Positions 10,568 to 63,459 of a DNA stretch of 64,000 bases are shown in pieces (position 1 is the first letter of the stretch; every line of letters begins with the position of its first letter). The notes beneath the pieces are model-generated. The model worked only from the letters and a program-made list of their open reading frames with translations. It was not told the DNA's origin and ran no database searches. Origin of the DNA: Candidatus Fraserbacteria bacterium (GTDB taxonomy: Bacteria; Bipolaricaulota; Bipolaricaulia; RBG-16-55-9; JAJCYT01); contig JAJCYT010000026.1 in NCBI GenBank assembly GCA_029262795.1, positions 50,273 to 114,272 on the forward strand, in the 5' to 3' direction. The translations under genes were made by a program, and so were the position numbers.

Positions 10568-11512
10568 TTAGAGGGTGCCTAAGCCGGAATTTGGAGCCAG
10601 GTCCACCAGATCATCACCACTGAAATCGGTGTATTGTGAAAAACACAGCCACTGAACATCGCCAGGAGAGCCAAGCAACTCCAGGTTGAGGCGCATGGTC
10701 AGAAAGTTGCCATCGACTTCACTGTTGATGCCCAAGATGGTGTCGTTGGGGCTGGCAGTATTAACCAGCGTGGCAAATGGATTGCCTGGAATCCAGTTGC
10801 TGAGTGCAAAGAATTCAAACCCACTAGGGTTGAATGGCGCAGCAAAGCTGGCATCTCCATCGGTATCCAGATAGCAGCCAATCTGACGTGGTTCATCCAA
10901 CACGATTTCTGGCAAAATGCCCAGCATGTTGAAAGTAAACACCAGGTCGGTTTCAGAACGCGTGGCGCGAAGGTCTACAATATCAATGCCATTGACGTCC
11001 TCCGACACTGCGTCGCCTGAGGCTCGATCAAACAAATCGTTGACACTGTCCTGAACATCGAAAGTGCTTTCAAAATCGACCACGGTCAGGTCAAAGCGAA
11101 CAGATTTGTTGGCCGTTCGTGGAGCGTCACATTCACTGGCCAGACCACTGGCCACAAAGGTCATTGGATATACGCCTGCTTCCGAAGCTTCGAGCACTTT
11201 GATCTGGAAATTAAAATCCAGTTTCTGCCCCTGATTGATGACCCAGGAGTTGCCTCCTTGACGGTCAAACACCAAATTTGCATTCAACACATTGGCCGAA
11301 ATACGCCAACTGCCCATTACAGCTTCAGCGCTAAAACCAATGTCAATCGTTTCACCTGGCAACAGCACGGCATCGACAGGGTCCAGATCTAGTCCGCCAC
11401 GTGCCAATACCAAGCCGCATCTGGCACCGGTTTGTGCCACAGAATCAGAAACCAGCCCGATCAGGGCCAGGGATAAAATCATCATGCCAAAAATAGTTTG
11501 CCATCTTTTCAT
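10568..11512 (-). CDS. Secreted hypothetical protein
   Basis: The start is placed at MKRWQTIFGMMILSLALIGL, a signal peptide. I recognise no domain. Confidence 0.55.
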   Translation of the reverse strand: MKRWQTIFGMMILSLALIGLVSDSVAQTGARCGLVLARGGLDLDPVDAVLLPGETIDIGFSAEAVMGSWRISANVLNANLVFDRQGGNSWVINQGQKLDFNFQIKVLEASEAGVYPMTFVASGLASECDAPRTANKSVRFDLTVVDFESTFDVQDSVNDLFDRASGDAVSEDVNGIDIVDLRATRSETDLVFTFNMLGILPEIVLDEPRQIGCYLDTDGDASFAAPFNPSGFEFFALSNWIPGNPFATLVNTASPNDTILGINSEVDGNFLTMRLNLELLGSPGDVQWLCFSQYTDFSGDDLVDLAPNSGLGTL

Positions 11513-11934
11513 GTCAGTCCTCCTTGTATCTTTCACCTTACTTTGATTGGATGCTATTCCCTTCATTAAAACCCAAGGAACGTACAAAATGGATGCACTG
11601 GAGGTGAAAAACACATGCAAGTTACCTTCAGATTACCTGAAGTCAAAAACCAACTTGATTGATGTTTGGAAAAATAAAATGCAGGTTCTGTCTTTGCGCT
11701 TGCGGTTTTTGGTCGCTTCCACTTCCATTTTGAATGTCAAAACCAAACGCATATAAATATTTTGCACTACAAAACATTAGAAAAACTCTGTAGTATTTAT
11801 CACACTCGCTGCACCTATGGCAGATGCACAAAAAATTCCGAGATCTGCCTAAAACTTGGTCATATTTTTATGATTTTTGCTACGCTTATCATAAGTGTGA
11901 GAAAATGATTCATTAGACAAAGGAGAGGCTGAGT

Positions 11935-31000: not shown

Positions 31001-33001
31001 CTATTTGTCCTCTACCACTTCTGCTTCACTATTGGAAGAAGTGGCTGCTTCAGTTTTTTGGTTGACCTCTTGAAGCAGCTTGAGTAAATCATCGGGTGTT
31101 TCGATACCGAATTCTTTCATCTTGGCTTCGATGGTACTTTCTGGCACTTTTACGCCGAACATTTTCTCGGCCAGTCCAGATAAGAAACCACCCACGCCTG
31201 TGACGGTGCCTGAGACGAGCTCTTCAATTTCAGTCGGTGTGCTTTGCACCAAGCCTTGCAGGAAGTGACCGTTTTCCTGACCGCGCGTGAAACCATTCAT
31301 CATGGCAGTTAATGTGGTTGGATCGCCCCAAATCCGCATGTCAGCCTGACCCAATGCCTGACCGAACGCTTCGGCCTGAGCCACGCGCACGGCTTGATCG
31401 GCCTCGATGTTCTTGAGCGCAATCTGCAATTCTTTGGAAATTTCCTGGTATTCTGCCTGGTTTTTCAAACTTTCACGTTCAACTTCAACGCGTTCACGTT
31501 CCACATTGACGGGCACCATTTCGACGGCTTGGTTTCCTTCCGCTTCCATCGTTTTGGCAGTTTGTTCAGCTTGAGCCAAATCAATTCTGGCTTTGGCTTG
31601 TTTTTCTGCCGCAGTTTGATCCGCTTCAGATTCTTTGATCGTGGCATAAGCTTCGATGTCAGCGCGCATGTTTTCTTCAATGCGCTGCTGTTCAGCCTGC
31701 GAATAGCGTTGAATCACAGCCACTTCTTTTTGGCGCTCAGCCTCTGCAGTCTTTTCAACGGTCAGCACAGCCTGATGCTCACGTTCCTGATCCTGCTCAG
31801 CCACAAAACGTTGAGCGTCCGCCTCAGCGCGTTGTTGTTCAGCACGGGTCACGGCAATCTGCTGCTGACGCTTGGCCACTTCCACTGCCTGAACACGGGC
31901 CACTTCTGCTGTTTCCATTGCCTGTTGCTTTTGCTGATCGGCCACATCCAACGCCTGTTGTTTGGTCACGCGAGCCACTTCGACCTCGCGCTCCTTAAGC
32001 ACCTCGGCAATGCCAGCCATCTGCTGTTGCTGCGCTTCCGTGGTGGCTGCTTCCTGATCGGCAATGGCTTTGGCGTTTCTGATTTGCTTTTCTCTGTCAG
32101 CCGCAGCTTGGGCACGTTCAATCTCGCGTTCATACACATATTGATCTCGCTGCACTTCTTGCTGCGACACTTCTTTGTCGGCTGATGCCTGGATACGTGT
32201 TTTTTCCACGCGCGCAGCCTGCGTGATTTCGGCCACGGCTTTCAACCCTTGCGCATCAAATACATTGTTTTCATCCAATTCGCTCGTCGGCGTTTGGTCA
32301 AGCTCGGAGATGGTCACACTTTCCAGCGTCAAACCATTGTGCTTGAGATCGCTTTGAACAATGTGTTGTACCCCGCTGCCGAAGTCATCACGTTCAGCAT
32401 TGAGTGTTTGCAGGTTGCGTGTGGCGGCCACGTTACGCAACGCGTTGACCGCCTTGGCGAACATGAACGTTTTTAGTTCTTCAGTTTGTTGAAGCTTGTC
32501 GCCAATCGAGGTGGCTGCATTCAGCACATCTTCACGCTTTTTGGCGACCTTGATGTAAAACTCCGCTGTGATGTCCGCACGAAGTTTATCCCCAGTAATT
32601 AAAGCATCGCGTCCTTTTCGGTCAATGTCAATACGCACCGTGCCCAATGGCACATGGATAATGCTGTGCAGAAAAGGAATCACCACCGCGCCACCATCAA
32701 TCACAATTTTGGCTTTGCTGGAGTCATCCCGGCTGGAACCCATCCCACCCGTTCGTACAAATGCCATGTTCGCTGGCGCTTTGATATACAGATTGGTTAC
32801 CACAGCCACAATCACACCCAGGAGCAGCAAGGCGGCACCAAACACCATGACTAAAATTTGAGCCGGTGTACTTAGAATATTAGGATTTATAATTGAAACA
32901 GTGATAGTTCCAATAACCATGATCAGCCCGATGAAGATGAATAAAATACCAACACCAGCCCCGCTTCCACTTTTCTTTTGTTTAGGGATTTGTCTATTCA
33001 A
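31001..33001 (-). CDS. Flotillin-like SPFH/band-7 protein with a long coiled coil (YqiK type)
   Basis: It has an N-terminal TM region. The SPFH domain is followed by an extended E/A/Q-rich coiled coil. The protein is 666 aa. Confidence 0.8.
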   Translation of the reverse strand: MNRQIPKQKKSGSGAGVGILFIFIGLIMVIGTITVSIINPNILSTPAQILVMVFGAALLLLGVIVAVVTNLYIKAPANMAFVRTGGMGSSRDDSSKAKIVIDGGAVVIPFLHSIIHVPLGTVRIDIDRKGRDALITGDKLRADITAEFYIKVAKKREDVLNAATSIGDKLQQTEELKTFMFAKAVNALRNVAATRNLQTLNAERDDFGSGVQHIVQSDLKHNGLTLESVTISELDQTPTSELDENNVFDAQGLKAVAEITQAARVEKTRIQASADKEVSQQEVQRDQYVYEREIERAQAAADREKQIRNAKAIADQEAATTEAQQQQMAGIAEVLKEREVEVARVTKQQALDVADQQKQQAMETAEVARVQAVEVAKRQQQIAVTRAEQQRAEADAQRFVAEQDQEREHQAVLTVEKTAEAERQKEVAVIQRYSQAEQQRIEENMRADIEAYATIKESEADQTAAEKQAKARIDLAQAEQTAKTMEAEGNQAVEMVPVNVERERVEVERESLKNQAEYQEISKELQIALKNIEADQAVRVAQAEAFGQALGQADMRIWGDPTTLTAMMNGFTRGQENGHFLQGLVQSTPTEIEELVSGTVTGVGGFLSGLAEKMFGVKVPESTIEAKMKEFGIETPDDLLKLLQEVNQKTEAATSSNSEAEVVEDK

Positions 33002-34288: not shown

Positions 34289-34715
34289 AACATCATATGT
34301 TCGCTCCTTCGCTGCTGATCATAGCCCAGAGCATTTTTCCCGACAAATCGAAAATTTACTCTATCTTCGAGCTGCCATAGCTGGCTTTTGTTATAGAAAT
34401 TCTGTTGTCCATCATGCCTGCGAAAACAAGAATTAAAACCAATTCCCACCTTTGCAGGGACGATGAAGTGTTGATTCACACAACTGCTTGTGTGTGATAA
34501 TTGAAAGCTTTTCCACCCTTTCCTCTATTTACGCCGATGCGGCCAAAGTGTTGCATCAAGTTACTTCCATTCATACTTTTCCATCCTTTCAAATGAACGA
34601 CAAAACTCTTGCGTGATTCAAAACAAAGAGGTACACTTCTCATTTCTGCGGGTTAGGCTGTTTCGACACAGGGCGTGTTGGGGTTTCTTTTTTTCCAAAT
34701 TTAAAAAGTGAGTAT

Positions 34716-39023: not shown

Positions 39024-39373
39024 TCAGCCACAACCACAGCCGCCAGAACCACAACCGCAACTGCCGGACTGTTCCTGATCTTTGGCTTCGTTGGGGTTTT
39101 CGATGTAAAAACCTTCGCCGTGTTCGCCGGACATAAAGTCCACTTTGGCACCGGCCAAAAGCGTTCCACTGTTGGCATCCACATAGAAGTTTACACCGTC
39201 GTATTCGAGGATGGTGTCGTCGTCACTGCCGTCCTGGGCCAGGAAAAAGCCGTATTTCATGCCACTGCAACAACCGTCTTGAGCCACGATGCGAAGACCG
39301 AAATCTTCTTTTTGTTCGCTTTTCAAATAGTCTTTTACAGCGTCAACCGCTTTTTCTGTAATAGTGATCATAA
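39024..39373 (-). CDS. IscA/HesB/ErpA-family A-type iron-sulfur carrier with an unusual Cys/Gly-rich C-terminal tail
   Basis: The start is MITITEKAVDAV... with an AAGGAG RBS. The IscA-like core is GCCSGMKYGF. The C-terminal tail is SGSCGCGSGGCGCG. Confidence 0.65.
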
Positions 39374-39487
39374 CGACACTCCTTAGTGATTTTCTAACAC
39401 TTATCATATCCCGAAAACATGACCAATGCAATGGAATTGACCGATGGAAAAGACTTTGGTAAAATGAAGAAAAAGAGACAGAGATTT

Positions 39488-39600
39488 TTTAAAAACTTCT
39501 AATCCTCCAACCTCCTTTTCCATAAAGGAGGCTACATTTGGGCCAAGCATGTTGTTTCTGCGCGTGATCATTGGTTCTTTGTGTAAGTTTGGTAGGAATT
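39488..39600. repeat. REP/MITE-like repeat, full-length forward copy
   Basis: TAATCCTCCAACCTCCTTTTCCATAAAGGAGGCTACATTTGGGCCAAGCATGTTG... The stem carries compensatory changes (CCTCC/GGAGG). Confidence 0.7.
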
Positions 39601-39872
39601 GAAAACCTTAAAAATTCTGCCTCGGAAAAATCCTGAACTCGTATTTCCCCCCAAACGAGTCGTTGTGTGATCCAATTTCGTGTTGGATTTTTACAGCGCG
39701 TTGATCGTCGTCATTTTTTACAAAATGGCAGCAACTTGGGACTCAAAATTTGGACGCCAGCGATTCCTATATCGTGGCTGTTTTTGTGTTGCAACTCCAC
39801 TGACTTGTTAATGGGTTGTCCTTAATTTTTATTCAAATCAATTTGAAAACGATTTTCATTTTCAAATTCAGC

Positions 39873-40095
39873 CTGTTGAAAACCCTGTTGAAAACTCGGC
39901 AAAATCTGTTGAAAACCTGTTCAAAACTTGGGGGCCAACTGTTGAAAACTCCTGTTGAAAACTCGGCTCCAGAGTTTTGCACAGGGGTTTTCAACAGGAA
40001 AGACAAAGTTTTGAACAGGTTTTGCACAGGGTTTTCAACAGGGTATACCTACTACAAACGCAGTTAGGTTGGAAAGTTCGGAAAGTTTTCAACAG
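39873..40095. promoter_or_regulatory. Cluster of 12 DnaA-box-like 9-mers (6 direct CTGTTGAAAAC-type, then 6 inverted GTTTTCAACAG or GTTTTGCACAG), a candidate oriC
   Basis: Direct copies start at 39873, 39885, 39906, 39917, 39939 and 39952. Inverted copies start at 39974, 39987, 40008, 40019, 40031 and 40085. The cores TTTTCAACA and TTTTGCACA are 1 mismatch from the TTTTCCACA box variant. Both flanks are AT-rich. The cluster is upstream of recF. Confidence 0.45.
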
Positions 40096-40225
40096 GCAGG
40101 GCCGCCCCTACTAAGACTACTACTTTATAAATAAAAAAACTTAGAGGCTTTTGTAGGAAGTCGTAAAATCGTAAGAAATTTTGATTCTCCATTTGAACCT
40201 GAGTAGACTCACTCAAGGAACACAC

Positions 40226-41329
40226 ATGAAATTATCCAAACTCTCTTTAAAGCAATTTCGTAACTTGGAACCTCTTTCTTTAGAACCTCATGAGAACCTC
40301 AACCTGATTGTGGGATTGAACGCCTCTGGGAAGACCAATCTTTGTGAGGCACTCTTTTATGCATCTAGGGGACAGTTGTTGAAAGGCGAACGTCAAAGAG
40401 AAATCATCAATTGGGATTGTCAGTGGAGTACTTTAAACCTCGAAGTTGGTTCTGAACACATTCGTATTGTCATGGACAACCATGAACAGACAAAAACTTT
40501 AGAACTCAGTGGAGAACTTGTTAAACAACAGGATCTGTTTGATGTCTTCAAAGTCCTTATCTTTACGCCAGACGATTTACAGATTGTCAAAGGCAGCCCT
40601 TCCAAAAGACGTCGAATGTTAGATCGAAGTATCGCCGATTTGGATGTGGCCTATCGTAAAGCGTTGCTGAATTATGAACAGGTTTTGAAACGAAAGAATA
40701 TTCTCTTGCGTCGAGATCGACCTGATCCTGAACTCCTTTCTGTCTATCAACAGCAGCTAGTGGAGCATGGGACACAATTGGTTCGCCAACGTCTTTTATA
40801 TCTGAATGAATTGAACAAGTATTTGAGCGTATTTCATCAGGAATTGAATCAGGCCAAGAAACCATTGTTTCTCAAATATGAAAGTGACGTGCCTTATGAC
40901 GGCAATGTGCCACAGCAGCTAGAAGAGGCACTGAAGAATGCTCACCAAAAAGAAATTGATCGGCGTATGAGCTTGATTGGTCCGCATCGGGATGATGTGT
41001 GTTTTGACATCGAAGGCATGGATGTTCGCCGGTACGGTTCCCAGGGTCAGCAGAAGACTGCGTTGATTGCGCTCAAGCTCGCGCAACTGGAGTTGTTTAA
41101 AGAACGCTTGGGTGAATACCCTGTGCTTATTCTCGATGACGTTCTGAGCGAATTAGACCCTGAACGTACTCAGATGCTGCTCAATCATCTGCCACAGGAT
41201 TTACAACTTTTTTTGACGGAGACAGATTTGAGTGATCCATTGGTCGAACGAGCTGGAAAGGTGTTTCGTATCAGCCACGGCCAGATTGAAGAATTGTCGA
41301 AAGAAGAATTATGCCCATCCCAGAACTAG
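40226..41329 (+). CDS. recF: DNA replication and repair protein RecF
   Basis: MKLSKLSLKQFRNLEPLSLEPHENLNLIVGLNASGKTNLCEALF contains the Walker A motif and the canonical RecF N-terminus. A C-terminal signature region is present. Confidence 0.85.
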   Translation: MKLSKLSLKQFRNLEPLSLEPHENLNLIVGLNASGKTNLCEALFYASRGQLLKGERQREIINWDCQWSTLNLEVGSEHIRIVMDNHEQTKTLELSGELVKQQDLFDVFKVLIFTPDDLQIVKGSPSKRRRMLDRSIADLDVAYRKALLNYEQVLKRKNILLRRDRPDPELLSVYQQQLVEHGTQLVRQRLLYLNELNKYLSVFHQELNQAKKPLFLKYESDVPYDGNVPQQLEEALKNAHQKEIDRRMSLIGPHRDDVCFDIEGMDVRRYGSQGQQKTALIALKLAQLELFKERLGEYPVLILDDVLSELDPERTQMLLNHLPQDLQLFLTETDLSDPLVERAGKVFRISHGQIEELSKEELCPSQN

Positions 41330-41859
41330 AAAATATTTTTGCAGCGTATGGTTTAAAAGATGCTTTTTATGAGCAGGAAGCCTTGTTTCACTGGGAAGAA
41401 GTTGTGGGACCAAATACCGCGCGATTGACGGAACCACTCAGTGTCAGTCAGGGTGTACTTTATGTTCAGGTAGGGAATCACGTGTTTGCACAGGAATTTA
41501 CATTGTTGCGCGAAACCTGGCTGGACATTTTGAATCAAAGATTGAAGCAGCCGCTCAAAGACATTCGCTTCAAAGTTGCAAAAGTGGACAAACCGAAACC
41601 GCCGCCGAAGTTACCCAGTGTTGATGAGATTGATCTGGATGAAAGCGAGCAAGCAGACGTTGAGTCTCTGTTTGAAGGGCTTGAGGATGACTCGTTGAAA
41701 CAAGCGTTCATGAAGATTTATGAAACGCAGCAAAAAGCTGAGAAAATCCGAGCGGATTTGGAGAATCAGAAGCAGTGCCCCAGTTGCCAGATGTATCACG
41801 ATGGAGATGGATTAATGTGTCCCTTTTGTGTGTTGGAAGGTAAGACATATCCGTCCTAA
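41311..41859 (+). CDS. DUF721-domain protein with a C-terminal zinc ribbon
   Basis: It lies immediately downstream of and overlapping recF, as in the typical recF to DUF721 synteny. The motifs are GVLYVQVGNHVFAQEF and a C-terminal CPSC...CPFC. Confidence 0.65.
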   Translation: MPIPELENIFAAYGLKDAFYEQEALFHWEEVVGPNTARLTEPLSVSQGVLYVQVGNHVFAQEFTLLRETWLDILNQRLKQPLKDIRFKVAKVDKPKPPPKLPSVDEIDLDESEQADVESLFEGLEDDSLKQAFMKIYETQQKAEKIRADLENQKQCPSCQMYHDGDGLMCPFCVLEGKTYPS

Positions 41860-47529: not shown

Positions 47530-48244
47530 GATGGTATGGGGTTACTTTACAGACCCCAATGACCCTAGCACTTTTATTCCACTATTGGACGCTCGAATGC
47601 TGGTGATGTCGTGGATTTCGATGCTGATTATTATTTTCGGCTCACTGGTGCTGCGACGCGGGATGAAGTTCAATCGCGATTTTGAAGACGTGCCTTCCAA
47701 ATCTCAGGCATTTTTGGAAATCCTCTTGAAGGGGTTGCATACGCAACTGGCCGGTGGGTTTCAGTCCAACAAGGTGGGCGAACAATTGTTCCCTATGTTG
47801 GCCACTTTGGGGGTTTACATTCTGTTCCTCAACTGGCTGGCACTGATTCCGGGCATGGCCTCTCCAACGGAAACGGTGAACATTCCCATCAGTTTGGGCT
47901 TGTTTATTTTTGTGCTGTCGCACTATTACCGAATTAAGCTCAATGGCCCAATTGGTTATTTAAAGAGCTATATGGAAGCGCCTGGCGTGATGGGCGTCAT
48001 CATGATTCCACTCAGCATTGTGGGTGAAATTGCCCGACCGATTTCCCACTCGTTCCGTCTTTACGGAAACTTGATGGGTGGGGCCATTCTTTTATTGGTG
48101 ATTGCCAATCTGGTGCCGCTTTGGGTGGTGCCGTTGCACACGTTCTTGAACTTCTTCTACATCTTATTCGTGGGTGGCATTCAGGCAATGGTGTTCACGT
48201 TGCTGTCCGTGGCCTATATCGGCATGGCGGAGGGGGATCACTAA
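47510..48244 (+). CDS. atpB: F0 ATP synthase subunit a
   Basis: FRLYGNLMGG is the essential-Arg motif region. The protein is 244 aa with 5 to 6 TM helices. Confidence 0.85.
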   Translation: MDHIGLEMVWGYFTDPNDPSTFIPLLDARMLVMSWISMLIIIFGSLVLRRGMKFNRDFEDVPSKSQAFLEILLKGLHTQLAGGFQSNKVGEQLFPMLATLGVYILFLNWLALIPGMASPTETVNIPISLGLFIFVLSHYYRIKLNGPIGYLKSYMEAPGVMGVIMIPLSIVGEIARPISHSFRLYGNLMGGAILLLVIANLVPLWVVPLHTFLNFFYILFVGGIQAMVFTLLSVAYIGMAEGDH

Positions 48245-48245
48245 A

Positions 48246-49808
48246 ATGGAATGGAATATTTCTGGACAAGATTTCGTCACGTTCTCGCGCTTTGTGGGCG
48301 CAGCGTTGGCGATGGGGTTGGCGGCCATCGGCTCCGCAATGGGGATTGGTTTGGCTGCCACAGGCGCACTCAAAAGCATGGTGCGTCAGCCCGAACGGCA
48401 GGGTGAATTTGTCCGCACCATGTTCATCAGTCAGGCCGTGGCGGAATCGACCGCCATTTACGGTTTGGTTGTTGCCATGTTACTTCTGTTTACCACCGGT
48501 GGTGGACATACAGACGGCATTCACGGCTCAGACTGGGTGAACGGTCTTCGCTTTCTGGCAGCAGGGTTGACCATGGGACTGGGCGCTATCGGTGCCGGTT
48601 ACGGCATTGGGATTGCCGGTACACACGCCATCGAAGCGATTACACAACGTCCTGAAATGAGCGGTGTGTTTATGCGCACCATGTTCTTAGGCATGGCAAT
48701 CACAGAATCGCCAGCGATTTATGCGCTTGTGATTTCAATGATTCTCATTTTCGTGATGGGCGCACCAGATGCTGTTGGTGTCTTTAGCGGCAATATTATG
48801 GACATTGCCCGTTATGTGGGTGCTGGTTTGGCCATGGGCGCAGGTGCCATTGGGGCTGCCATCGGGATTGGGACTGCGGCTGCAAAGGCCTTGGTTGCCA
48901 TTGCCCGACAGCCAGCCAAGCAAGGGCCTTTGGTCCGCACGATGTTTTTGAGTATGGCGATTACGGAATCCCCAGCGATTTACGCATTGGTGGTTTCTTC
49001 AATTTTGATTTTTGTATTCACGCCAACCGATGCTGAAGCCGCAAGAATTTTTGGCGGCATGGATTTGGTGGCCATTGGGAAATATATGGGTGGGGCCATT
49101 GCCATTGGGTTTGGCACCATCGGGGCAGGGATTGGTTTGGGGATTGCCGGTGGCGGCGCCTTGGATGGCATTTCGCGCAATCCGCGGAAAGAATCTTCCC
49201 TGGTCCGCACGATGTTTCTGAGCATGGCCATCACGGAATCGCCTGCCATTTATGCGCTGGTGATTTCGCTGATTCTACTGTTTGTGTTCGCCGTGCCAGA
49301 CACCATGAGCTGGGCGCAGGGATGGGCTGAACTGGCCAAGTTGCTCGGTGGCGGCATTGCGATTGGCTTGGGCACCATTGGTGCTGGAGCCGGTGTGGGC
49401 ATTGCCGGATTGGGTGGTTTGATAGGGATTTCACGTCGGCCGCAAAAAGAAGGCGCGATGCTGCGCACCATGTTTATTGGCATGGGCGTGACAGAATCGC
49501 CCACCATTTATGCGTTGGTGGTTTCATTGATTTTGCTGTTTGTGGCCAGTTCGGATGTCAGCACCATGAGTCAGGGACTGCATGACTTTGCCCGCTTCTT
49601 GGGCGCAGGGTTTGCCATGGGAGCTGGGGCCATCGGCCCTGGTTTGGGGATTGGGTTGGCCACCAGAGATGCACTCACCAGTATGGCCAAACAGCCTGCA
49701 CATGAAGGTGCGCTGGTTCGCACGATGTTCCTGGGCATGGCCGTGACCGAATCCACAGCGATCTACGCGTTGGTGGTTTCTTTGATTTTGTTGTTCGCAG
49801 TTGGTTAA
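48246..49808 (+). CDS. atpE: F0 ATP synthase c subunit, a natural fusion of six tandem c-subunit hairpins in one polypeptide (about 520 aa)
   Basis: It is a single uninterrupted ORF with a GGAGG RBS. There are six repeats of about 87 aa. Each has a Gly-rich helix 1, an RQPE/RNPR loop, and RTMF...(A/T)ES(T/P)AIYALV...LILLF in helix 2 with the carboxylate Glu conserved. The repeats are diverged at synonymous sites. Confidence 0.8.
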   Translation: MEWNISGQDFVTFSRFVGAALAMGLAAIGSAMGIGLAATGALKSMVRQPERQGEFVRTMFISQAVAESTAIYGLVVAMLLLFTTGGGHTDGIHGSDWVNGLRFLAAGLTMGLGAIGAGYGIGIAGTHAIEAITQRPEMSGVFMRTMFLGMAITESPAIYALVISMILIFVMGAPDAVGVFSGNIMDIARYVGAGLAMGAGAIGAAIGIGTAAAKALVAIARQPAKQGPLVRTMFLSMAITESPAIYALVVSSILIFVFTPTDAEAARIFGGMDLVAIGKYMGGAIAIGFGTIGAGIGLGIAGGGALDGISRNPRKESSLVRTMFLSMAITESPAIYALVISLILLFVFAVPDTMSWAQGWAELAKLLGGGIAIGLGTIGAGAGVGIAGLGGLIGISRRPQKEGAMLRTMFIGMGVTESPTIYALVVSLILLFVASSDVSTMSQGLHDFARFLGAGFAMGAGAIGPGLGIGLATRDALTSMAKQPAHEGALVRTMFLGMAVTESTAIYALVVSLILLFAVG

Positions 49809-49866: not shown

Positions 49867-50154
49867 ATGGAAGTGTTGAACTTATTCTTGCAAGCAGGAC
49901 AAGGCATTACGGGCGAAGATTTGGTTACGGCTGCCCGTTACTTAGGTGCAGGCATGGCTATGGGTTTTGGCGCTATCGGCCCTGGCATCGGTGAAGGTAT
50001 GGCTGCAGGTGCTGCGTTGCAGGGGATTGCCGCCAACCCAAAAGAACAGGGTGCTTTGGTTCGTACCATGTTCATCGGCCAGGCTGTGGCAGAATCCACC
50101 GGCATTTACGCATTGGTGATCGCCATTATCTTGTTGTTCGTGATGGGCAACTAA
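49867..50154 (+). CDS. atpE: F0 ATP synthase c subunit (conventional monomer, Na+-type-like ESTGIY motif)
   Basis: The 95-aa protein has a GGAGG RBS. Its sequence is GFGAIGPGIGEGMAAG...ANPKEQGALVRTMFIGQAVAESTGIYALVIAIILLF. Confidence 0.85.
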   Translation: MEVLNLFLQAGQGITGEDLVTAARYLGAGMAMGFGAIGPGIGEGMAAGAALQGIAANPKEQGALVRTMFIGQAVAESTGIYALVIAIILLFVMGN

Positions 50155-62532: not shown

Positions 62533-63459
62533 ATGACCTTCTTAGAGCTTGCCAAGATGACAGAGAATCAAGCGAGAAAATACCTTGAAAAGATTAGGTG
62601 GTCAGATGGTAAGCCAGTTTGTCCTCATTGTGATTCAGATAATTGCACAAGACTCAAAGGTAAAAAACATCGTCGTGGTGCCATACAATGCAATGAATGT
62701 CGCCAACAGTTCTCAGTTACTGTAAACACAGTGATGGAGAAATCCCACATTCCATTGACAAAATGGTTGATGGCAATTCATTTAATGTGTTCATCTAAGA
62801 AAGGCATTTCTGCAAGGCAACTGCAACGCGATCTTGACCTTGGCTCATACAAAAGCGCACACTTTTTGTCGCACAGAGTTCGTTACGCAATGGAACATGG
62901 CATTTTAGGTGAAAAGCTCAAGGGTGTGGTTGAGGCTGACGAAACTTTTGTTGGTGGCAAGAGTCGAAAAGGCAAAAGAGGATACAGCTCAGAGCGAAAG
63001 ACGCCTGTGTTGGTCATGGTAGAGCGTGATGGTAAAGCAATCGCAAAGGTCGTCAAACGCACAGATGGCAACACTTTAAAGCCAGAACTGATGAAGCATA
63101 TTGACAAATCTGCAACCTTAATGACCGACGAAGCAGGTCAATATTATGGTTTGAGTCAACACTTTGACGGTGGACATCACGCAGTTGTGCATAGCCGCAA
63201 AGAGTATTCACGCGGTAATGTTCACTCTAACACAGCCGAGTCATTTTTTAGCCTTATCAAGCGTGGTTACTATGGAGTATTTCACTGGATGAGTAAGCAG
63301 CATCTACACAGATACGTGACTGAATTTCAATTTAGATGGAATCATAGGAAACAAACAGACAGCGAATGTCGGGACGCAGTTTTGAAGCAACTGGCTGACA
63401 AGCGTTTGATGTATTACGCTCCGAAGTCAGGCGAAATGGTAGACTGCTTGGTGAATTAA
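62533..63459 (+). CDS. IS1595-family transposase (ISXO2-like, with an N-terminal zinc ribbon)
   Basis: CPHCDSDNCTRL...CNECRQQF is a zinc ribbon. The DDE-type core ETFVGG...DE...MTDEAGQYYG is typical of IS1595/ISXO2. Confidence 0.8.
   Translation: MTFLELAKMTENQARKYLEKIRWSDGKPVCPHCDSDNCTRLKGKKHRRGAIQCNECRQQFSVTVNTVMEKSHIPLTKWLMAIHLMCSSKKGISARQLQRDLDLGSYKSAHFLSHRVRYAMEHGILGEKLKGVVEADETFVGGKSRKGKRGYSSERKTPVLVMVERDGKAIAKVVKRTDGNTLKPELMKHIDKSATLMTDEAGQYYGLSQHFDGGHHAVVHSRKEYSRGNVHSNTAESFFSLIKRGYYGVFHWMSKQHLHRYVTEFQFRWNHRKQTDSECRDAVLKQLADKRLMYYAPKSGEMVDCLVN

Follow-up and report, generated by a model that had tools for sequence, protein, structure and literature searches.

A mirrored array of twelve DnaA-box-like repeats upstream of recF is the probable chromosomal replication origin of an uncultured relative of Candidatus Bipolaricaulota

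The question raised by this locus is whether a dense array of short repeats immediately upstream of recF is the place where chromosome replication begins. The array lies in a 64-kb stretch of contig JAJCYT010000026.1 (hereafter the window), within the intergenic region 5' of recF and dciA (DUF721), which the original prediction had called unusually long at about 850 bp and which we measured at 854 bp (39372-40225). From the sequence and its comparison with related loci, we conclude that the array is very probably the origin of chromosome replication (oriC) in an uncultured bacterium whose relatives include metagenome-assembled genomes (MAGs) labeled Candidatus Bipolaricaulota. A candidate oriC upstream of recF had been proposed on the repeats and their surroundings, and the proposal is borne out by a break in strand skew, by the orthology of the repeats to canonical DnaA boxes beside dnaA, and by an unwinding module next to the array.

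The array consists of 12 copies of an 11-mer in 223 bp (39873-40095), 6 pointing leftward and then 6 pointing rightward. The six direct and six inverted copies that had been described were each found in place. On the plus strand, CTGTTGAAAAC occurs six times within 39873-39962 (starts 39873, 39885, 39906, 39917, 39939, and 39952), the copy at 39917 being the variant CTGTTCAAAAC. The six inverted copies within 39974-40095 comprise three of GTTTTCAACAG (starts 39987, 40031, and 40085), two of GTTTTGCACAG (39974 and 40019), and one of GTTTTGAACAG (40008). Start-to-start spacings are 12, 21, 11, 22, and 13 bp in the first half, 22 bp across the center, and 13, 21, 11, 12, and 54 bp in the second half; neighboring boxes thus stand at distances of about one helical turn (11-13 bp) or two (21-22 bp), in a pattern mirrored about the array center. 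Searching the window for CTGTTGAAAAC with at most one mismatch yielded 15 matches, 10 of them inside the array, while 100 dinucleotide shuffles gave 2.57 ± 1.69 matches and none reached 15. The two GTTTTGCACAG copies are two mismatches from CTGTTGAAAAC and were recovered by a repeat-family search. The relaxed DnaA-box pattern TT[AT]TN[CA]ACA has 36 sites in the window, 12 of which fall in these 223 bp with the orientation order LLLLLLRRRRRR, and no second cluster of such sites was found in the window (from 40 kb left to 24 kb right of the array). For comparison, a box-cluster criterion for oriC asks for at least three DnaA boxes at an average distance below 100 bp (quoted in PMC7561715), and here 12 boxes stand in 223 bp.

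Read as DnaA boxes, the repeats are extended by conserved flanking G residues (GTTTT..ACAG) and carry C or G at position 5. Both TTTTGCACA cores fit the consensus TTWTNCACA exactly, and in the remaining 10 of the 12 boxes (TTTT[C/G]AACA) position 6 is A in place of C; we call these two kinds C-type and A-type. The core TTTTCAACA departs from the consensus at position 6 only. Compared with the E. coli box TTATCCACA, the TTTTGCACA boxes have two mismatches and the A-type boxes two or three (two in TTTTCAACA), so that box searches with TTATCCACA at one mismatch or fewer would overlook all 12, since every box has at least two. The A-type core is not without precedent: TT(T/A)TCAACA is the proposed DnaA-box consensus of mollicutes (PMC3322544), and the 9-bp core TTTTCAACA is identical to it, although mollicutes belong to another phylum and the boxes of this array differ in their flanking G and variable position 5. 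To look for A-type boxes more widely, we scanned 185,579 species genomes (GTDB) for two such boxes within 14 bp, which returned at least 120 loci. Among the 120 listed, dnaA lay inside the fetched locus (8 kb or less) in 11, where random placement would give about 0.3 by our own estimate. In one of these, an Oscillospiraceae locus, 14 boxes begin right after the dnaA stop codon and the series ends in TTTTCAACAGTTTCAACA-CCCCC-CTATTACTACTACTG followed by AT-rich DNA. Judging by these loci, TTTTCAACA is predicted to serve at canonical origins elsewhere as well.

The comparison with related lineages carries most of the argument. A first scan of genome contigs with RecF peptides returned no relative. 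This RecF has no close named relative; homologs at 43-50% identity are labeled Bipolaricaulota, and a genome that has the same locus and a RecF 63% identical (L088) is titled Candidatus Bipolaricaulota bacterium. Five lineages resemble the window in having recF without an adjacent dnaA (RecF identity 93% in L003, 90% in L006, 66% in L010, and 63% in both L008 and L088). In all five the array lies directly upstream of recF-dciA, and a divergent Fe-S cluster gene stands opposite recF wherever upstream sequence exists, as in L003, L006, L008, and L088 (L010 begins inside the array). Two further loci, L132 (RecF 45% identical) and L133 (47%), have the order dnaA, about 310 bp, recF-dciA, and in their spacer the array is made up of canonical boxes, the left-hand ones reading CTGTGGAAAAC and CTGTGGATAAC and the right-hand ones GTTTTCCACAG and GTTATCCACAG. 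We aligned the eight sequences (the window, L003, L006, L010, L008, L088, L132, and L133), and all eight align box by box, which makes the window's repeats orthologous to genuine DnaA boxes. Identity in the recF-only lineages is 92% over box columns and 64% over the columns that separate them. The array of L008 is mixed, its left arm being mostly TTTTCAACA, right-arm boxes 7-11 TTTTCCACA, and box 12 TTTTCAACA, so that one and the same origin has both A and C at position 6. The TTTTCCACA variant is thus found at orthologous positions in both L008 and L132.

To the right of the array lies what appears to be an unwinding module. The original prediction had marked AT-rich DNA on both sides as potential DNA unwinding elements, and both stretches are present, the palindrome TTTGAAAACGATTTTCATTTTCAAA on the left (39842-39866) and TTTATAAATAAAAAAAC on the right (40124-40140). 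The right-hand stretch belongs to the least stable DNA of the intergenic region (the 30-mer at 40109-40138, in the top 0.1% of the window), and it stands behind a box, a 13-nt spacer, and CTA repeats, an order also found in characterized origins. These elements recall the basal unwinding system (BUS) of B. subtilis-type origins, in which one or more DnaA boxes are followed by a short GC-rich spacer, 3'-GAT-5' trios, and an AT-rich region (Richardson 2016/2019; Pelliciari 2021, PMC8287927). The DnaA-trio consensus is 3'-GAT-5', preceded by a GC cluster, and the C. difficile trio reads 5'-CACCTACTACTATTACTACTATGA-3' (PMC7561715). In the window, the minus strand over 40108-40125 reads 3'-GAT GAT TCT GAT GAT GAA-5'. 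CTACTA (40108-13), C40117, and CTA (40120-22) are invariant in 8/8 lineages, the first two trios are GAT in every one of them, and CTACTA occurs only five times on the plus strand of the entire window. The position of box 12, which faces the trios, holds a box in 8/8 lineages, A-type in the six recF-only lineages and GTTTTCCACAG or GTTTTCCCCAG in L132 and L133. Published prediction rules for the BUS allow the box up to two mismatches and the spacer up to 16 bp, and call for three or more 3'-NAN-5' trios in an unbroken run; spacer lengths peak at 10-13 bp with 13 bp the commonest, 3'-GAT-5' is commonest at the proximal trio positions, and 57% of predicted systems have a second box in tandem, placed between main box and trios, the single-box form also being accepted (PMC8287927). 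Here the box TTTTCAACA has two mismatches to TTATCCACA, faces the trios, and stands 13 nt from them, and the trio run is contiguous by the strict rule in L006 (six trios) and L088 (three). Box orientation is essential in B. subtilis (PMC6669920).

At the same site in L132 (7900-7952), the trio block CCCCTACTACAACTACTA recurs as a perfect 18-bp inverted copy, TAGTAGTTGTAGTAGGGG, across a 15-bp AT core, so the L132 unwinding site is bordered by trios on both strands. The conserved T..TAGG at 40151-40157 is what remains of this inverted copy in the window.

We then assessed strand asymmetry, a local test that covers the 64 kb of the window and is not genome-wide. The skew switch for which the original prediction had asked is found at the locus. 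G-C skew is -0.042 left of the array and +0.078 right of it (Mann-Whitney p = 2e-8 for 1-kb bins left vs right of 40 kb), and a two-mean change-point fit to 100-bp bins located the break at 40,300 (95% range about 39,400-40,900). The fit was used in place of the raw minimum because the cumulative curve is nearly flat up to 40 kb. A change from negative to positive has the polarity of an origin, not of a terminus. For replication starting at 40 kb, 61% of coding bases to the left and 86% of those to the right are co-oriented with it, and the same change of skew sign is seen in L003 (-0.01 to +0.12) and L132 (-0.007 to +0.07). The original prediction had named two signs that together would speak against it, dnaA-dnaN lying far away with a DnaA-box cluster of their own and no skew inflection at this locus. 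The second does not apply, as an inflection was found; as to the first, both genes are absent from the window.

Several observations weigh against an origin at this site. First among them is that absence of dnaA and dnaN from the 64 kb, where tblastn with Bipolaricaulota DnaA returned nothing; gyrB is absent from the window too. Whole-database searches with the DnaA of L132 and of a further Bipolaricaulota MAG (L011) listed 120 matches each, none of them on the clade's recF contigs (3,217,265 bp and 209,212 bp). Since the dnaA of the clade was not found in these searches, a second box cluster may lie near dnaA elsewhere in the genome. As for linkage to replication genes, recF and dciA are adjacent here and dnaA is adjacent in L132 and L133, a typical but not obligatory trait of origins. 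Ten of the 12 boxes depart from TTWTNCACA by one mismatch each at position 6, a deviation that would predict lower affinity in E. coli terms. AGA splits the trio run into 2 + 3, so that the window itself fails the rule of at least three contiguous trios, and no second box is recognizable in the 13-nt spacer, where GGCAGGGCCGCCC matches a box at 1/9 positions as read by eye. The raw cumulative-skew minimum lies at 34,646, from where the curve runs nearly flat on to 40 kb, and skew alone therefore places the origin only within a few kilobases; plus-strand genes occupy the left replichore at 34.7-38 kb, where the curve is flat. Finally, skew is weak over the short available flanks of L008 and L006, and in L133 as well.

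The explanation that best survives beside an origin, though we consider it improbable, is that the array is a cluster of DnaA boxes with another role, either a site of DnaA titration or reactivation, like datA, the DnaA-reactivating sequences (DARS), and the DnaA-box clusters (DBC) of B. subtilis, or a DnaA-controlled recF promoter, while the real oriC lies beside dnaA. Clusters of this kind are known (PMC3245932), the window has neither dnaA nor dnaN, and a putative recF promoter stands about 40-70 bp beyond the AT core. Sites of the datA, DARS, or DBC kind would be expected to have neither an unwinding module nor a skew switch, and both are present here. The G-C change point falls on the array, the box-spacer-trio-AT module is complete and invariant across deep divergence, and the window holds no other cluster over the 40 kb to the left and 24 kb to the right. 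Moreover, L132 and L133 carry a homologous array in their dnaA-recF spacer, and no boxes were seen upstream of dnaA in L132.

We think it very unlikely that the repeats are instead iterons or operators for a different DNA-binding protein, for instance a regulator acting on recF-dciA and on the Fe-S gene that diverges from it, or a Rep of the plasmid type. The repeats do extend over 11-12 bp, exceeding the 9-bp DnaA box, with a conserved flanking G, and a metagenome scan for pairs of CTGTTGAAAAC matched many unrelated contigs showing no dnaA or recF (dnaA occurred in 3 among the 120 matches listed, and the window's own contig was not among them). What decides against such a role, and against the iteron array that the original prediction had allowed as an alternative, is that L132, beside its dnaA, has perfect TTATCCACA and TTTTCCACA boxes at the orthologous sites; both box types are also mixed in the one array of L008. 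In addition, the window is chromosomal, since its genes include housekeeping genes (the atp operon, metG, metK, and argG/argH), and no regulator or Rep gene is adjacent.

That the function lies in a fold, the array being a structural palindrome (a hairpin or cruciform, an RNA hairpin, or a mobile-element remnant), can practically be dismissed: inverted arms at 39872-39927 and 39987-40042 are 71% complementary and draw weak Rfam scores from hairpin-shaped miRNA models, but those scores are far under the gathering thresholds, no transposase genes or terminal repeats lie nearby, and conservation is box-wise rather than pair-wise, mirror partners not co-varying, as L008 shows with its A-type left arm and C-type right arm.

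How does the proposed oriC compare with origins already described? We found no description of Bipolaricaulota origins in the literature that we searched. With the BUS it shares a box facing the repeats, a 13-nt GC-rich spacer, proximal trios that read CTA CTA in the top strand and 3'-GAT GAT-5' in the bottom one, an AT core that comes next, and preservation of the module across lineages. It differs in having a single recognizable box by the trios in place of the tandem #6/#7 pair and in the AGA that breaks the NAN rule; it also neither flanks dnaA nor is bipartite, and 11 further boxes stand in its mirror array.

The left end of E. coli oriC, in the mnmG-mioC intergenic region, was found with 100% identity in 5,423 E. 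coli genomes. The reverse complement of the stretch joining box R1 to the duplex unwinding element (DUE) reads TTATCCACA-GGGCAGTGCGATC-CTAATAAGAGATC, which has the same polarity as the window's module, the same 13-nt spacer, and a similar CTA.TAAGA start. The E. coli-type trait of two opposed arrays for DnaA oligomerization is present in the orientation pattern LLLLLLRRRRRR, and the unwinding-proximal box stands apart from the rest of its arm, as R1 does from R5M. E. coli oriC is likewise unlinked from dnaA and has about a dozen boxes in two opposed arrays (PMC9198467 and PMC10325909). In contrast to E. coli, the region contains no GATC (0 sites in 39826-40225), no 13-mer repeats, and no match to the IHF consensus WATCAANNNNTTR; its boxes are nearly uniform, whereas E. 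coli has three strong and many weak ones; and it neighbors recF-dciA, with DciA in place of DnaC. Also comparable are the dnaA-oriC-recF loci of L132 and L133, which share the homologous array, the left/right layout, the isolated last box, the trios, and recF-dciA downstream. They differ in that dnaA is immediately upstream and the boxes are C-type, while the clade of the window has the Fe-S gene and A-type boxes.

We infer that DnaA would bind the 12 extended boxes GTTTT[C/G][A/C]ACAG. Because the boxes are about one or two helical turns apart, DnaA would form two oppositely oriented oligomers, one over the left arm with its six boxes, the other over the five right-arm boxes and box 12. Box 12, 13 nt from the repeats, would then direct a DnaA-ATP filament onto the bottom-strand repeats at 40108-40125, and the filament would open the adjoining AT core at 40124-40140. 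DciA, encoded about 1.2 kb downstream, would next help to load the replicative helicase. More speculatively, the left arm might recruit helicase, as does the right DnaA-oligomerization region (Right-DOR) of E. coli, or might open a second site.

As an element, the locus is of an ordinary kind; what is peculiar is that dnaA is gone from the origin and that the sequence of the sites has drifted. The ancestral order was presumably dnaA-oriC-recF-dciA, from which, in the clade of the window, dnaA would have departed while most boxes changed from TTTTCCACA to TTTTCAACA. For specialists, the points of note are this unlinking of dnaA, the conserved mirror arrangement (6+6) of extended boxes, the change of position 6 from C to A in nearly all boxes, for which a living intermediate exists, and a single-box BUS with E. 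coli-like 13-nt spacing. A bolder suggestion, which we hold to be rather doubtful, is that the clade forms a natural series of initiator-origin co-evolution, in which the 12-site geometry was kept while nearly every position 6 went from C to A, with L008 as the living intermediate and dnaA moving off over the same interval, and that the two outward arms abutting AT-rich flanks might open both sides. If domain IV of the clade's DnaA proves to be relaxed or shifted at position 6, this would show origin and initiator changing together with function kept. The conserved 6+6 array and its mixed-type intermediate thus offer a system for testing how DnaA-box specificity evolves, and for asking whether one A-type box is enough to make the box-13 nt-trio module work. 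In practical terms, an origin fixed for this uncultured lineage helps in rotating and checking assemblies and in coverage-based estimates of growth rate.

Table 1. Features of the proposed origin and its immediate neighbors, in window coordinates.
Feature	Position	Strand	Remarks
Fe-S cluster biosynthesis (IscA-like) gene	39024-39371	-	Pfam PF01521; 115 aa in identical contig L001
Left AT-rich flank	39826-39870		Imperfect palindrome TTTGAAAACGATTTTCATTTTCAAA at 39842-39866; arms 39840-39852 and 39856-39868, 92% complementary
Left arm, six predicted DnaA boxes	39873-39962	-	Pointing left; read 5'-GTTTT[C/G]AACAG-3'
Left-arm boxes	39873-83, 39885-95, 39906-16, 39917-27, 39939-49, 39952-62	-	
Right arm, five predicted DnaA boxes	39974-40041	+	Pointing right
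Right-arm boxes	39974-84 (TTTTGCACA core), 39987-97, 40008-18 (TTTTGAACA), 40019-29 (TTTTGCACA), 40031-41	+	
Gap between boxes 11 and 12	40042-40084		43 bp; contains GGTTGGAAA, kept within the close clade (alignment)
Box 12, predicted, GTTTTCAACAG	40085-40095	+	Core 40086-40094; unwinding-proximal, facing the trios
Spacer GGCAGGGCCGCCC, box 12 core to first trio	40095-40107		13 nt; GC-rich in all aligned lineages
DnaA-trio-like repeats	40108-40125	-	Plus strand reads CTA CTA AGA CTA CTA CTT
AT-only core TTTATAAATAAAAAAAC, proposed DUE	40124-40140		AT-rich in all aligned lineages
Conserved T..TAGG beyond the AT core	40151-40157	+	TAG on the plus strand; invariant alignment columns T326, T329, A330, G331
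Putative recF promoter	40181-40209	+	TTGATT-17 nt-TAGACT; inferred from sequence
recF	40226-41329	+	Pfam SMC_N/AAA_23; homologs named RecF by their sources
dciA (DUF721)	41311-41859	+	Pfam PF05258 DciA, E = 6e-16

The genes bordering the proposed origin are listed in Table 1. Transcription of the Fe-S gene runs away from the origin, and the gene stands where L132 and L133 have dnaA; dciA is the gene of the ancestral replicative-helicase loader. On the left flank of the array, the 30-mer at 39821-39850 is the second least stable stretch of the region (top 0.33% of the window), and TTGAAAAT..TCA.TTTCAA is kept in L003, L006, L008, and L088. CTA-type trios were not seen there in any frame, as judged by eye; this flank may be an auxiliary unwinding site or a protein-binding site. 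For the putative recF promoter, GTAGACT and TTGATT/TTGACG are kept in the alignment with L003, L006, L010, and L008, though it scored below the 9/12 threshold of the promoter scanner. A further sigma-70-like promoter, TTGACC-17-TAAAAT at 39437-39465, is conserved and directed toward the origin. Downstream of it, within 39437-39800, islands of sequence are conserved in L003 and L006, and hairpins at about 39509-39530, 39637-39660, and 39758-39780 retain pairing despite sequence changes. This region has no Rfam match, and L008 and L088, whose spacers are shorter, lack it; either a small RNA or transcription into oriC could account for it. Across the window, Rfam gave nothing at gathering thresholds, its sub-threshold signals over the palindrome being miRNA-hairpin noise, and no tRNA genes were found in the window. 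A 17-aa open reading frame (ORF) at 39550-39603 and ORFs of 52, 83, and 64 aa over the array were considered and rejected as genes, as on our own reading their coding sequence is not conserved.

Other loci came to light in the course of these searches. In the unclassified MAG "bacterium AM_0876" (locus L071, 7020-7330, minus strand), whose RecF is 30% identical, GTTTTCAACA boxes lie upstream of recF-dciA; among them is a tandem pair, after which come TTCTTACTACCCTAGTACC and AT-rich DNA. The locus may be another, independent origin that is close to recF and uses A-type boxes. A recurrent three-box element of CTGTTGAAAAC-like sites (LRR or LLR, about 40 bp) occurs in many contigs (L159-L253), several of which come from human-gut metagenomes; neither dnaA nor recF is close by, and the element appears unrelated to the array. 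In the Bipolaricaulota MAG of L011 (8906-11092), dnaA (360 aa) abuts recF with a 12-bp gap. TT[AT]TN[CA]ACA has no site in the whole 21-kb L011 locus, so the origin of that genome lies elsewhere or uses different boxes. The placement of dnaA and oriC clearly varies within the phylum, with three arrangements seen: dnaA-oriC-recF, oriC-recF without dnaA, and dnaA abutting recF without boxes. Many Bipolaricaulota DnaA proteins are only 345-360 aa long and have no match to DnaA_N (PF11638), and on that account seem to be without domain I; others have 441-452 aa and a DnaA_N match.

Farther from the origin, two large ORFs have no Pfam match (31001-33001, minus strand, 666 aa; 10568-11620, minus strand, 350 aa), and close to the window's right end there is a transposase gene of the IS1595 family (62533-63459, plus strand). 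In an otherwise standard atp operon, a 544-aa ORF (48174-49808, plus strand) has six ATP-synt_C (PF00137) matches and thus looks like an F-type c subunit of about six fused hairpins; its counterpart in L003 has 522 aa. Multi-hairpin c subunits are unusual in F-type ATP synthases, and here the long ORF is followed by a normal c-subunit ORF of 95 aa (49867-50154).

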